From Actinomycetes bacterium (GTDB taxonomy: Bacteria; Actinomycetota; Acidimicrobiia; Acidimicrobiales; JAJYXR01): 64,000 nucleotides of DNA. Positions 5,791 to 37,384 of this stretch are shown here, one piece after another (position 1 is the first letter of the stretch; each line of letters starts with the position of its first letter). The notes under the pieces were generated by a model. That model made no database searches. It was not told the origin of the DNA and saw only the letters and a program-made list of their open reading frames with translations. The stretch lies in the NCBI GenBank assembly GCA_021801525.1, contig JAJYXW010000034.1, forward strand, positions 5,052-69,051, written 5' to 3'. The translations under genes and the position numbers were made by a program.

Positions 5791-7254
5791 ATGCCCACCG
5801 AGCATGCGCCCGAGCGTGTCATCGCCTCCCCGGACGAAGACTTTCCCCGTTGGTACCAAGACGTGGTCGCGAAAGCCGAGCTGGCCGAAGGAGGGCCCGT
5901 TCGCGGCACCATGGTGATCCGGCCCTACGGGTACGCCATCTGGGAACGCATGCAGGCCGACCTCGACCGGCGCATAAAGGAGGCTGGCGCATCCAACGCC
6001 TACTTCCCCCTCTTCATCCCCGAATCGTACCTACGCCGAGAGGCTGAGCACGTAGAGGGATTCAGCCCTGAGCTCGCCGTGGTCACTCACGGTGGCGGAA
6101 GGGAGCTGGAGGAGCCCGTCGTCGTCCGTCCCACCAGCGAGACGATCATCAACGCTTCGTTCGCCAAGTGGATCCATAGCCACCGCGACCTGCCTCTGTT
6201 GATCAACCAATGGGCCAACGTCGTGCGCTGGGAGCTGAGGCCGCGCCTGTTCCTGCGCACCAGCGAGTTCCTGTGGCAAGAGGGCCACACCGCTCACGCC
6301 ACCCGCGGGGAGGCAGGTGAATTCGCGCTGAAGATCCTGCGCGAGGTCTACGAGGACTTCATGGTGGATGTGCTCGCGATCCCGGTTCTCACCGGCCGCA
6401 AGACTGCCCGCGAGCGCTTCGCGGGCGCCACTACCACCTGGACCTGCGAAGCCATGATGCGCGACGGCAAGGCGCTGCAGATGGGCACGAGCCACGAGCT
6501 CGGCCAGAACTTCTCCCAGGCCTTCGACATCACGTTCCTGGACGACCAGGGCAGGCGGAACCACGTCTGGCAGACCTCCTGGGGGGTCTCGACCCGCCTC
6601 ATGGGAGCCCTGGTGATGGCCCATGGCGATGCCTCGGGACTCTGCCTTCCCCCGGCCATCGCTCCTGTCGAGGTTGTGGTGCTCGTGGTGCGCGCCGAGG
6701 GTGGCACAGTAGAGCGCGCAGAGTCCATCGTCGCGGAGCTGCGCTCCAAGGGACGTCGAGTCGAGCTCGATGCCCGCGCCGATACCTCTTTCGGACGACG
6801 GGTCGTGTCATGGGAGCTCAAGGGTGTGCCCCTCCGAGTCGAGCTGGGACCGCGAGATGTCGCCGGGGAAACGGCGGTGCTCGCCCGCCGCGACACCGGC
6901 ACCAAGTCCACCGTCCCCATGGGCGAGCTGGCAGGCCGGGTCTCCGAGGAGTTACGCGCCTCGCAGCAGGCCATGCTCGCCAACGCCGTTCTCCGCCGTG
7001 AGCGTGCCACCTCGGAGGCCTCGACGCTCGACCAGGCGATCGCCGCCGCGCAGAAGGGATTCGCAGTGCTGCCGGCGTCTCTGCTTGCCTCCGGAGGCGA
7101 GGAGAGGCTCAACTCCGCAGGTGTCTCCGTGCGCTGCCTGCGGCGCTCTGACGGGAGCCTCCCGGACGCCGAAGTGCCTGAGGGTGCCGACGACCTCGAG
7201 GGTGCCGGCGGTGCCGATGGAAAGCTGGTGGCTATAGCCGCCAAGGCGTACTGA
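5791..7254 (+). CDS. proS: Prolyl-tRNA synthetase, archaeal/Thermus-type (no INS editing domain)
   Basis: FPRWYQDVVAKAEL..., class II motifs, and the terminal Tyr (..AAKAY) typical of this ProRS type. ATG 5791 chosen because the upstream part of the ORF runs through a 22-bp noncoding repeat. Confidence 0.92.
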   Translation: MPTEHAPERVIASPDEDFPRWYQDVVAKAELAEGGPVRGTMVIRPYGYAIWERMQADLDRRIKEAGASNAYFPLFIPESYLRREAEHVEGFSPELAVVTHGGGRELEEPVVVRPTSETIINASFAKWIHSHRDLPLLINQWANVVRWELRPRLFLRTSEFLWQEGHTAHATRGEAGEFALKILREVYEDFMVDVLAIPVLTGRKTARERFAGATTTWTCEAMMRDGKALQMGTSHELGQNFSQAFDITFLDDQGRRNHVWQTSWGVSTRLMGALVMAHGDASGLCLPPAIAPVEVVVLVVRAEGGTVERAESIVAELRSKGRRVELDARADTSFGRRVVSWELKGVPLRVELGPRDVAGETAVLARRDTGTKSTVPMGELAGRVSEELRASQQAMLANAVLRRERATSEASTLDQAIAAAQKGFAVLPASLLASGGEERLNSAGVSVRCLRRSDGSLPDAEVPEGADDLEGAGGADGKLVAIAAKAY

Positions 7255-34824: not shown

Positions 34825-35397
34825 TCAGTGCGGGCCCTCCCCCCGCAGGCTCTCCTCCATGGCAGCCATCTCATCGGCACCAGGTAGGAGGTCCCCCACC
34901 GGCGGCAGTGCTGCTAGAGAGTCGATGCCGAGCTTCTCGAGGAAGAGCGACGTCGTGGCATAGAGGAGTGGCGCTCCGGCACCCTCTGCATGGCCCACGG
35001 GCTCTATATAGCCTCGCCCCGCGAGCATGCGGACGACCCCGTCCACGTTCACTCCCCGAAGGGCCGCGATCTGCGCTCGCGACACCGGCTGGCGATAGGC
35101 GATTATGGCAAGGGTCTCCAGCGCAGCCGACGAGAGCCGCGAGGAGACTCCTTCCAGGGCGAAACGCTCCACGAACGGTGCCATGTCCGGATGGGTCTGG
35201 AAGCGGTAGCCTCCCGCCACGCGGGCGAGGACGAACCCGTGTCCCTCTGAGTCGTACGCCGCTGCGAGCTCGTCGCAAATTGCCTCGACGCGTTCTGCGG
35301 GCAACTCGAGGAGCTCCCCGAGGAAACCGGGGGTGACCGGCTCGACTGCCGACAGCAAGACGGCTTCCACGGCACGATGCTCGATCGGGCGAGCCAC
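34825..35397 (-). CDS. scpB: Segregation and condensation protein B
   Basis: IEHRAVEAVLLSAVEPV..., IAYRQPVSRAQIAALRGV... are ScpB winged-helix repeats. GTG 35397 preferred over the track TTG 35415, which lies inside the inserted element. Confidence 0.85.
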   Translation of the reverse strand: MARPIEHRAVEAVLLSAVEPVTPGFLGELLELPAERVEAICDELAAAYDSEGHGFVLARVAGGYRFQTHPDMAPFVERFALEGVSSRLSSAALETLAIIAYRQPVSRAQIAALRGVNVDGVVRMLAGRGYIEPVGHAEGAGAPLLYATTSLFLEKLGIDSLAALPPVGDLLPGADEMAAMEESLRGEGPH

Positions 35398-35399
35398 TA

Positions 35400-35561
35400 G
35401 TGGTCCGTCTCGCAAATGATCTTGGGTTCCCGCCGGCCAGATGACGCCCCTGGCGGCGTTCTCGTCCTCGACGTAGCTACAGCTACGCCTTCGTCCTCGG
35501 CCTTGCCAGATGACGCCCCTGGCTCGGCGGCCAACGTCACGCTATTTGCGAGACAGACCAC
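35400..35561. mobile_element. 162-bp MITE-like element with 18-bp terminal inverted repeats, flanked by TA within CTAG
   Basis: Left end gtggtccgtctcgcaaat (35400-35417). Right end atttgcgagacagaccac (35544-35561). 17 of 18 positions are complementary. Flanks read c-TA-[element]-TA-g. Internal 19-bp direct repeat gccagatgacgcccctggc (35436-35454 and 35505-35523) and central hairpin cgtagct-ac-agctacg. No ORF. Confidence 0.6.
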
Positions 35562-36427
35562 TAGCCGTCGTACTCCTCCACGGGCACGGACCGGGGAAAG
35601 GGCGCGGACAAGACGAACGGCTCGCCGTAGGACGAGCTCCGCTCGATCACCTCGGGCTCGCCGGGAGAGCCACCCAACCACCTCACATGGAGGTCGCCGA
35701 AGGTGAGAGCCTGCTCGATGTCCACGCGGCCGCGCTTGCAGAGCTCGAGCAGCGCGAGGAAACGAACTATGACCTCCATGCGGGTACGGCAATGAGCGGT
35801 CAGCTCGCGAAATGTGGCCCGCCCCCGGGCCGGAAGGCCTTCCTCGAGCTCTGCGACCGCCTCGGAGACCGTGACCGCCTCGACCGTGACGTGATCCAGG
35901 CCAACCACCGGCTCCGGCCTCGGCGCGCACGCCCTCCGGTACGCCGCTGCTAGATCGTCGGGCGAAATACTCGCGAGCAGGTCGGGCGCGAGCAGCAGAA
36001 ACCTCTCGTCGAGCCCAGCGGTCCGCGGCACCGAGCGCGCAGCCCTGTCGAGCATGCGCGCGATCAGCTCCGCCGCAGCGACGTAGGCGTGCAGCTCGAG
36101 CATGCGCCCGAGAAGCTTGTCGCGCTCCTCCAGGCCTACGAGCTCCTCCTCGTCTTCGACCTCCCCACGCCCGGGCAGGAGCTTGCGCGACTTGAGCTCG
36201 ACTAGCACGGCCGCCACGAGCAAGAACTCCGACACGTCGTCGGTTGGCAACGCCGCGAGATGGGACACGAAGGCGTCGACGACCTCGCCTAGGGGAACGT
36301 CGTAGATGTCGACCTTGTGCTCCGCGACGAGACGCGCGAGCACGTCGAATGGACCAGCGTAAGCGGGAGTCTCGACGCTGAAGGTCACACTCAGACCATA
36401 CCGGCTTGCCCGCCGCCGGGCGCGCAT
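35561..36427 (-). CDS. scpA: Segregation and condensation protein A
   Basis: FSVETPAYAGPFDVLARLVAEHKVDIYDVPLGEVVDAF is a typical kleisin ScpA N-terminus. Located upstream of scpB. Confidence 0.85.
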   Translation of the reverse strand: MRARRRASRYGLSVTFSVETPAYAGPFDVLARLVAEHKVDIYDVPLGEVVDAFVSHLAALPTDDVSEFLLVAAVLVELKSRKLLPGRGEVEDEEELVGLEERDKLLGRMLELHAYVAAAELIARMLDRAARSVPRTAGLDERFLLLAPDLLASISPDDLAAAYRRACAPRPEPVVGLDHVTVEAVTVSEAVAELEEGLPARGRATFRELTAHCRTRMEVIVRFLALLELCKRGRVDIEQALTFGDLHVRWLGGSPGEPEVIERSSSYGEPFVLSAPFPRSVPVEEYDG

Positions 36428-36460
36428 CCGCCTGGAGCAGGAAGAACGGATGCCCCTTTA

Positions 36461-36502
36461 CTGCCCAGCCCCGACTGCCCAGCCCCGACTGCCCAGCCCC
36501 GG
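36461..36502. repeat. 14-bp x3 tandem repeat upstream of scpA
   Basis: ctgcccagccccga three times, 34 nt upstream of the scpA ATG. Confidence 0.95.
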
Positions 36503-36690
36503 GCGACCTCCTTCTTCGGAGCACCACCCGGGGCCGTCCCGGCCATCTCGGTGGGGCGAGCAGCTGAAGCCTTCTGGCTCGACGCTCACGAACCTGGTTC
36601 GAACCTCCTGATCGTAGGTGATGCCGAATATCCCGATTCGTAAGCATACCCAGTAGCATGATCGCGGCATAGAAACCAGTTGAACAGAGA

Positions 36691-36696
36691 TATACT
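36691..36696 (+). promoter_or_regulatory. Candidate -10 box (TATACT) giving a leaderless vapB transcript
   Basis: TATACT ends 7 nt before ATG 36704. No SD sequence precedes that ATG. Sits in a locally AT-richer stretch. No good -35 element. Confidence 0.4.
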
Positions 36697-36703
36697 CACT
36701 GTT

Positions 36704-36946
36704 ATGGCCAAGAGTTGCCCTTCAGAGAACGATCAGCGGACGACGCTGGTTCTCGATTTGGAAGAGTTGCGTCGCGCGCGAGAGATTCTCGGCACGAAGA
36801 CGACCAGGGAGACCGTGAACAGAGCGCTGCACGAGGTCAACCGGGTTGCCGCTCTTCGTCGGGCCGCCGCCCTGGTGCGCCGGGGAAACCTCGGTGTCGT
36901 CGAGCCAGAGGACCTGCCTGAGCTCCGACGCACACGTTTGGTTTGA
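36704..36946 (+). CDS. vapB: Type II antitoxin, VapB family (DUF2191-like)
   Basis: RTTLVLDLEELRRAREILGTKTTRETVNRALHEV resembles the RTTLDLDDELL...TKT..V..AL antitoxin motif. Stop lies 3 nt before the vapC start. Visibly lower local GC. Confidence 0.7.
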   Translation: MAKSCPSENDQRTTLVLDLEELRRAREILGTKTTRETVNRALHEVNRVAALRRAAALVRRGNLGVVEPEDLPELRRTRLV

Positions 36947-36949
36947 CTC

Positions 36950-37384
36950 GTGCCCGTCTACCTCGCCGATTCCTCGATCTGGGCGTGGGCCAACAAGAGG
37001 TCGCGTCCGGACATCCAGGAGAAGCTGGCGGAGCGGCTGGAACGCGACGAGATCGCGACGTGCGTACCGGTCGCTCTCGAGGTCATGCACCGAGCGGAAT
37101 CCGCAGATCAATACGAGGAGCTGTTCAATCGTCTGTTGGGGCCGCTTCGCTGGCTCGAACTCGACGATGCGACCGCACGACGAGCGCTCGATGTCCAGCG
37201 CGAGCTGGCTGGACGTTCTCGAGGGAATCACCGCCGCCCGGCAGTCGACTACTTGATCGCCGCGACCGGAGAGTTGGCGGGTGCCGAAGTGGTCACCTGG
37301 TTCTTCGATCGGGACTTTCGTGTGATCTGCGAACACACGGGTCAGCCATTCGAAGCTGAAACCACGACCGGACCGGGCCACTGA
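36950..37384 (+). CDS. vapC: PIN-domain ribonuclease toxin VapC
   Basis: GTG start. VYLADSS (first acidic residue), ...ALEVM..., ...DYLIAAT..., ...FDRDF are consistent with the PIN acidic quartet. Confidence 0.8.
   Translation: MPVYLADSSIWAWANKRSRPDIQEKLAERLERDEIATCVPVALEVMHRAESADQYEELFNRLLGPLRWLELDDATARRALDVQRELAGRSRGNHRRPAVDYLIAATGELAGAEVVTWFFDRDFRVICEHTGQPFEAETTTGPGH

Follow-up and report, generated by a model that had tools for sequence, protein, structure and literature searches.

What separates scpA from scpB, two neighbouring genes of one condensin operon, in an acidimicrobial genome, and does the separating DNA serve either gene? The question is raised by the window, a stretch of 64,000 nucleotides from an Actinomycetes bacterium of the order Acidimicrobiales (GenBank assembly GCA_021801525.1, contig JAJYXW010000034.1, positions 5,052 to 69,051 of the forward strand). 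Here, the scpA stop lies 164 nt away from the scpB start, and the two genes neither overlap nor abut. We conclude that the intervening 162-bp element is very probably a miniature inverted-repeat transposable element (MITE) of the IS630 type that was mobilised in trans and cut into the CTAG of the scpA stop and scpB start, and that it is best read as a tolerated passenger of the operon and not as a device. The features of the junction are the following, in window coordinates, with the strand given where it applies.

35400-35561: element of 162 bp, classed as a non-autonomous IS630-type MITE, subfamily A long form (from the copies in its own genome and the ends common to loci L122 and L132)
35400-35417: terminal inverted repeat GTGGTCCGTCTCGCAAAT, directly upstream of the scpB GTG on the mRNA strand
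35544-35561: terminal inverted repeat ATTTGCGAGACAGACCAC, with a single mismatch that is polymorphic among strains
35398-35399: TA target-site duplication on the scpB side (from the flanking tetramers of 62 copies)
35562-35563: TA target-site duplication on the scpA side, completed by C35561, the element's terminal base, to the minus-strand TAG at which scpA stops
35436-35454: internal 19-nt direct repeat GCCAGATGACGCCCCTGGC, copy 1 (exact repeat)
35505-35523: internal 19-nt direct repeat GCCAGATGACGCCCCTGGC, copy 2 (exact repeat)
about 35473-35486: central palindrome GTAGCTACAGCTAC, tip of the whole-element hairpin (from sequence and fold)
36427-35561, minus strand: scpA, 288 amino acids, ending in ...VEEYDG and then TAG (Pfam SMC_ScpA, 5.5e-34)
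35397-34825, minus strand: scpB, 190 amino acids from the GTG at 35397-35395 (Pfam SMC_ScpB, 6.8e-48)
35573-35579, minus strand: GGAGGAG in the 3' end of scpA, putative Shine-Dalgarno sequence of scpB before the insertion (from sequence and duplex energies)

The initial annotation had described a 162-bp segment with 18-bp inverted repeats, TA flanks, a 19-bp direct repeat and a central hairpin, and all of these parts are present. The terminal repeats match at 17 of 18 positions; with the CTAG included, the match extends to 21 nt at 95%. Their single mismatch is the T at 35555 (+ strand reading ...GACAGACC); it is a strain polymorphism, with perfect 18/18 repeats in other strains. The element sits in the flank context C-TA-[G...C]-TA-G. 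On the minus strand, scpA runs through its last codons GAG GAG TAC GAC GGC TAG to the stop at 35563-35561, which was kept after the insertion, as had been proposed, because the TA and the terminal C35561 supply it. Subtracting the element and one TA yields GGC TAG TGG CTC, in which TAG and GTG share a G (TAGTG), so that the sequence arithmetic agrees with the one-base overlap suggested earlier. Open reading frames within the element are read-through or spurious only. An alternative scpB start, the TTG at 35415-35413, is located six codons upstream of the GTG within the inverted repeat GTGGTCCGTCTCGCAAAT; the commonest length among close ScpB homologues is 190 amino acids.

Further copies had been predicted for this genome, and many were found. 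The assembly, a 3.38-Mb metagenome-assembled genome (MAG) of 193 contigs with 93% completeness and 68% GC, contains 57 matches to the element (14 full length, 83-98% identity). At least 17 bounded copies are placed at unrelated loci, together with fragments cut by contig ends. Subfamily A comprises seven full-length copies at 93-100% identity and one further, diverged copy at 87%, while subfamily B comprises six full-length copies with ends GTGCTCCGTCCCGGAAGT and a central part of ~100 nt that is nearly the same as in A. Short forms of 93-99 bp occur in both subfamilies and lack exactly one 69-bp repeat interval; the 93-bp form is accounted for by a deletion of 69 bp between the two copies of the 19-nt direct repeat.

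Three other copies (all G000) also stand at gene ends. Two of them coincide exactly with the TAG stop of a Pfam-supported gene, which encodes a Zn-dependent alcohol dehydrogenase at C179:10668-10835 and a TadA-like deaminase at C193:12450-12616. The copy at C190:10260-10427 is found between two long convergent open frames, both of which end in its flanking CTAGs. In a relative from another family of the order (G006, L031-L035), at least 11 copies of a repeat match the interior of the element only, over positions 35-134 of the 168-nt query at ~77% identity, with the element ends unmatched.

Target sites were tallied for 62 copies, taken from this genome and from others. CTAG is the left tetramer of 53 copies and the right tetramer of 47, and both the TA duplication and the CTAG preference put forward by the initial annotation hold across the set. 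CTAG is rare in this genome, with 2,644 sites corresponding to 0.26 of the base-composition expectation. A preference of IS630 for TA within CTAG is described in PMC2170065, which cites Tenzen and Ohtsubo 1991. The related ISY100 transposes by a cut-and-paste route and duplicates TA.

A parent insertion sequence with matching ends had been called for, and it was found outside this genome. A scan for the degenerate end TAGTGSTCCGTCYCGSAAR, in which each prokaryote species was represented by a single genome, returned at least 97 matching loci, where ~70 are expected by chance in a collection of that size. Among the matches listed, 48 loci have two inverted ends at an exact spacing of about 166 bp; their MAG labels are Thermoleophilia, Solirubrobacterales, Gaiellales, 'Actinomycetes' and Acidimicrobiia. 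The ends of these paired loci are conserved and their interiors fall into several unrelated groups, and only L158 among the matches listed is alike over the whole element length (83% identity). At two loci from Solirubrobacterales MAGs, L122:3760-4951 and L132:1310-2501, the ends are 1,192 bp apart from TA to TA and enclose insertion sequences of 1,188 bp. Both elements are flanked c-TA...TA-g and have ends TAGTGCTCCGTCTCG; their left end TAGTGCTCCGTCTCGGAAGT matches subfamily B at 19 of 20 positions and the window copy at 17 of 20. Each encodes a 382-residue open reading frame that matches the NCBIfam model NF033545, IS630 family transposase, with 192.5 bits (cut-off 100), as well as Pfam HTH_32, HTH_29 and DDE_3. 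Because the window element has its ends in common with elements that encode an IS630 transposase, and because its target is TA in CTAG, we class it, on sequence grounds, as an IS630-type MITE.

Two observations concern the wider transposon family. Across L092-L171, ends of ~16-20 nt and a nearly constant length of 166 bp (TA to TA) are retained despite interiors that are unrelated in sequence, which suggests a constraint on length or hairpin shape and not on sequence. In the cultured isolate Bifidobacterium jacchi MRM 9.3, elements of 119-142 bp with subfamily-A ends TAGTGGTCCGTCTCGCAAAT... are flanked c-TA...TA-g (L117:6684-6802, L149:3962-4083 and 6091-6232, L140:1-106), and this strain is a possible laboratory host for the transposon family.

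We propose the following course of events. An IS630-family transposase (Tc1/mariner-type, DDE) would have mobilised the transposase-less element in trans, by cut-and-paste insertion into the TA of the CTAG that the scpA stop and the scpB start made together (GGC-TAG-TGG). The G...C ends of the element and the duplicated TA would have rebuilt CTAG at both ends, so that scpA would keep its TAG stop and scpB its GTG start, at their present distance.

How does the junction look where the element is absent? In 30 relatives of the order, scpA ends with a conserved Y-x-G followed by a TGA that overlaps the ATG (mostly ATGA) or by a short spacer. The element segment is present at the scpA/scpB junction in none of these 30 relatives. 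The initial annotation had named a segment kept at this junction across relatives, with no other copy anywhere, as the sign of a regulatory structure, and the opposite pattern is observed, many copies elsewhere and 30 relatives without the segment. The nearest other relatives (75-77% ScpB identity) also lack it and show EEYDG or EEYEG, TGA and a spacer of 11-26 nt. From these EEYDG/EEYEG ends, the ScpA end in the window appears to be ancestral and unchanged by the insertion. In one relative (G019, L049), the spacer from the scpA stop to the scpB start measures ~120-260 nt and has a lower GC content; uncoupling of scpA and scpB is thus not unique to this genome.

Closer to the window, contigs from many samples were gathered through exact-protein look-ups. 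The long 162-bp form is present in every contig with more than 99.5% identity to the window, across many samples, and short-read contigs of this form break within the first 5-36 nt of the element. One contig (L076) has the 93-bp form at the same site, the product of a deletion between the 19-nt direct repeats; the palindrome would thus be unstable in place, with recombination between these repeats giving rise to the short form. A sister lineage, represented by three Logan contigs (L079-L081, 95-97% identical to the window), lacks the element and reads ...GTG GAG GAC CAC TAG TGG CTC.... Its scpA ends in VEDH and not VEEYDG, its TAG and GTG overlap by one base, and GGAGGA lies 6 nt before the start. 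All alleles with the ancestral EEYDG end carry the element, and all alleles without the element have VEDH. The sister junction GAGGA-CCAC-TAGTGG equals the filled allele minus 170 bp, with both endpoints in GGA microhomology; of these 170 bp, 158 come from the element, 10 from scpA and 2 from one copy of the TA, and 4 nt of the element (CCAC) are left.

This junction can be read in two directions. In the direction we favour, the sister allele probably arose by secondary loss, a 170-bp deletion between the GGA microhomologies that would have restored the coupled TAGTG with an ideal GGAGGA spacing. A single event is then sufficient, the split of the alleles into EEYDG and VEDH is explained, and the three mutations that are needed otherwise can be spared. 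Long palindromes are, in addition, prone to deletion. In the opposite direction, the sister junction GAGGACCACTAGTGG never held the element and was formed from the empty site by a 6-nt deletion and two adjacent substitutions (GGC to CAC), via an element-free intermediate GAGGACGGCTAGTGG. We regard this as unlikely, though it deserves to be kept in mind. CGGC and CCAC differ at the two middle bases only, so that a weak coincidence would account for the match of the remnant with the element end, SNPs (single-nucleotide differences) reach the junction with no sign of recent import, and the window copy seems younger than the split of the lineages. Against this, three mutations would have to cluster within 10 nt where one deletion of 170 bp between GGA repeats gives an exact fit, and the presence of the element follows the EEYDG end as its absence follows VEDH. 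Recent recombination was also considered as the origin of the sister allele and is rejected because SNPs flank the junction on both sides, 11-88 nt ahead of it and beginning 71 nt after it.

Several results weigh against insertion and secondary loss as proposed here. The exact empty site GGCTAGTGGCTC was not found when contigs of JGI (Joint Genome Institute) metagenomes were scanned with the patterns GARTAYGAYGGNTAGTGGCNCGNCC and GGNTAGTGGCNCGNCCNATYGARCA. The initial annotation had expected the empty site TAGTG at orthologous junctions; TAGTG itself is seen in the sister lineage, where 10 nt of scpA are replaced by CCAC, and we infer the ancestral empty site from the filled one. No clean presence/absence polymorphism was seen for the scpA/scpB copy, the sole element-free allele having a deletion-type junction. 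Compared with 11 other full-length copies, the window copy has 1 private substitution in 168 nt. With a synonymous divergence of 0.12-0.16 between the window and the sister lineage, about 10-13 substitutions are expected if the insertion is older than the split. The low divergence could mean that independent insertions struck this site in the two lineages, that the window copy is the source of its nearest relatives, the copies C67, C6 and C18, or that the copies were homogenised; this CTAG may thus have served as a target repeatedly. Finally, a search of this genome for PF13358 gave no match and hence no IS630-type transposase, and tblastn with the L122 transposase against the same genome gave nothing below E = 0.2. 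We consider this absence weak counter-evidence in a MAG of this completeness and contig number. Repeats often stay unassembled, and a cognate transposase in the same genome is not part of the definition of a MITE.

What does the insertion do to scpB? By the proposed mechanism, it would have separated scpB from the GGAGGAG in the 3' end of scpA, which has a duplex energy of -9.3 kcal/mol with the canonical anti-Shine-Dalgarno sequence. The distance from this motif to the GTG, which would have been 11-12 nt before the insertion, is now about 175 nt. The best Shine-Dalgarno match near the GTG is at present GAGACGGA in the element end, a poor one of -5.8 kcal/mol. In the predicted fold of the mRNA strand, the element and its flanks form a single hairpin (-112.7 kcal/mol, z = -7.2), which places the scpA stop and the scpB start on either side of the stem base. 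The initial annotation had suggested a new ribosome binding site or structure for scpB, a suggestion with little support: the match is poor compared with the displaced GGAGG, and the structure is the element's own hairpin. The element contains no terminator-like U-tract and no sigma-70-like promoter, and an Rfam E-value scan of 35200-35800 gave no match in it, the only hit being a chance one to a long non-coding RNA outside the element. Relative to the sister lineage, dN/dS (the nonsynonymous to synonymous rate ratio) is 0.076 for scpB and 0.17 for scpA, which points to purifying selection on both genes and to both being still functional. Most likely, the insertion lowers or changes the translation of scpB without abolishing it.

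The hairpin might also have been kept because it is useful. A ribosome that terminates on scpA would melt the 5' arm and free the scpB start, with 162 nt looped out, so that coupling or a tuned ScpA:ScpB ratio is maintained. We find this improbable. The stop and the start are placed exactly at the base of the stem, but every element with inverted repeats would produce this geometry on entering an overlap. The element is fixed in the contigs closest to the window, across many samples, and scpB is still under purifying selection; however, the short form and the near-complete deletion occur at the same site, and the element is more polymorphic than the genes. The element has 4 segregating sites in 162 bp, and scpA and scpB together have 8 in 1,437 bp (Fisher p = 0.026), which is consistent with relaxed constraint on the element. 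In every long copy, one strand folds better than the other, by 9-24 kcal/mol, and the mRNA of the window has the better-folding strand by 17 kcal/mol. Among the 31 copies with a clear direction of transcription, the better-folding strand is sense in 15 and antisense in 16. Selection at the RNA level is accordingly rejected as the cause of the strand asymmetry, which is a property of the element and not a sign of function. Folding strand, signals, Rfam and polymorphism thus gave no evidence of an element function. If the hairpin did act as a bridge, CTAG-rebuilding MITEs could enter overlapping junctions without breaking translational coupling, and the long, short and deleted alleles would be a natural series that tunes the ScpA:ScpB ratio.

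The assignment to IS630 competes with an IS5/PIF-Harbinger-like family that duplicates the 4-bp CTAG. CTAG does flank most copies on both sides, and an empty site alone cannot distinguish a TA duplication with G...C ends from a 4-bp duplication. The flanks themselves can: at least 10 of the 62 copies have unequal tetramers (TTAG...CTAG, CTAG...CTAA, CTAG...CTAC, CTAG...CTAT) in which only the outermost base differs. The inner G and C are constant where the outer base differs, a pattern that agrees with a duplication of 2 bp (TA) and not of 4 bp. Since the full-length elements with the same ends moreover encode an IS630-family transposase, we reject the IS5-like assignment as highly improbable. 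The strong hairpin between two genes of one operon could finally suggest a conserved regulatory RNA or terminator specific to scpAB, which is refuted with near certainty by the many copies at unrelated loci, the absence from the junction in all relatives examined, and the lack of any Rfam match, U-tract or terminator-like site.

The IS630-type MITE at scpA/scpB resembles several known systems. With IS630 of Shigella sonnei and the IS630/Tc1/mariner family (e.g. ISY100), it shares the TA duplication, the strong preference for TA in CTAG and short inverted repeats. The autonomous relatives at L122 and L132 have ~1.19 kb and one transposase with helix-turn-helix and DDE_3 domains and an NF033545 match, whereas the window element has 162 bp and no transposase, and the autonomous elements with matching ends are found in another class (Solirubrobacterales MAGs) and not in this genome. 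The RUP (repeat unit of pneumococcus) is a non-autonomous element of ~100 bp with inverted-repeat ends, TA duplication and many copies near gene ends; it is attributed to IS630-Spn1, with an IS630-family transposase presumed to act on it in trans. Both are short non-autonomous elements with inverted-repeat ends and TA duplication. They differ in sequence and host phylum, and the ends of the window element rebuild CTAG and hence TAG stops. Correia elements of Neisseria (CREE/NEMIS) duplicate TA, exist in long and short forms through internal deletion, and form co-transcribed hairpins that can alter expression. The likeness extends to the TA duplication, the long and short forms and the hairpin transcripts, the last being a predicted fold in the window. 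In contrast, Correia ends contain promoter and integration host factor (IHF) sites and their hairpins serve as substrates of RNase III, whereas the window element has no sigma-70-like promoter. What is new here is the position on a stop/start overlap within a condensin operon, the three allelic states observed at one site, and the hint of CTAG reuse. Otherwise, this is an ordinary mobile element of a well-known kind in an unusually tidy place.

Two further features lie upstream of scpA. A tandem repeat with the 14-nt unit ACTGCCCAGCCCCG occupies 36460-36501 in three units, at a distance of 33-74 nt from the scpA ATG; it is unique in the genome and on the sense strand comes after GAAGGAGG. Its number varies among strains more than 99.5% identical, from one plus degenerate units (L083) through two (L073, L085) and three (most) to five (L070, L082). 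Just upstream of scpA and in opposite orientation, 36680-37384 contains an antitoxin-like open reading frame of 88 amino acids and a PIN-domain open reading frame of 144 amino acids, for which PF01850 is found in the called genes of matching contigs.

For annotation, the junction matters because gene callers disagree on the scpB start, and products of 181, 190 and 196 amino acids are on record. For the biology of the family, the G...C ends that rebuild the rare CTAG mean that a landing on a stop codon or on a stop/start overlap destroys neither gene. For a gene pair that is normally coupled, the site provides a natural series of junctions in four states: the 162-bp insertion, its 93-bp derivative, the deletion in which the overlap is restored, and the empty site that we infer. 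Such a series could be used to test the weight of translational coupling for the SMC-ScpAB subunit balance.

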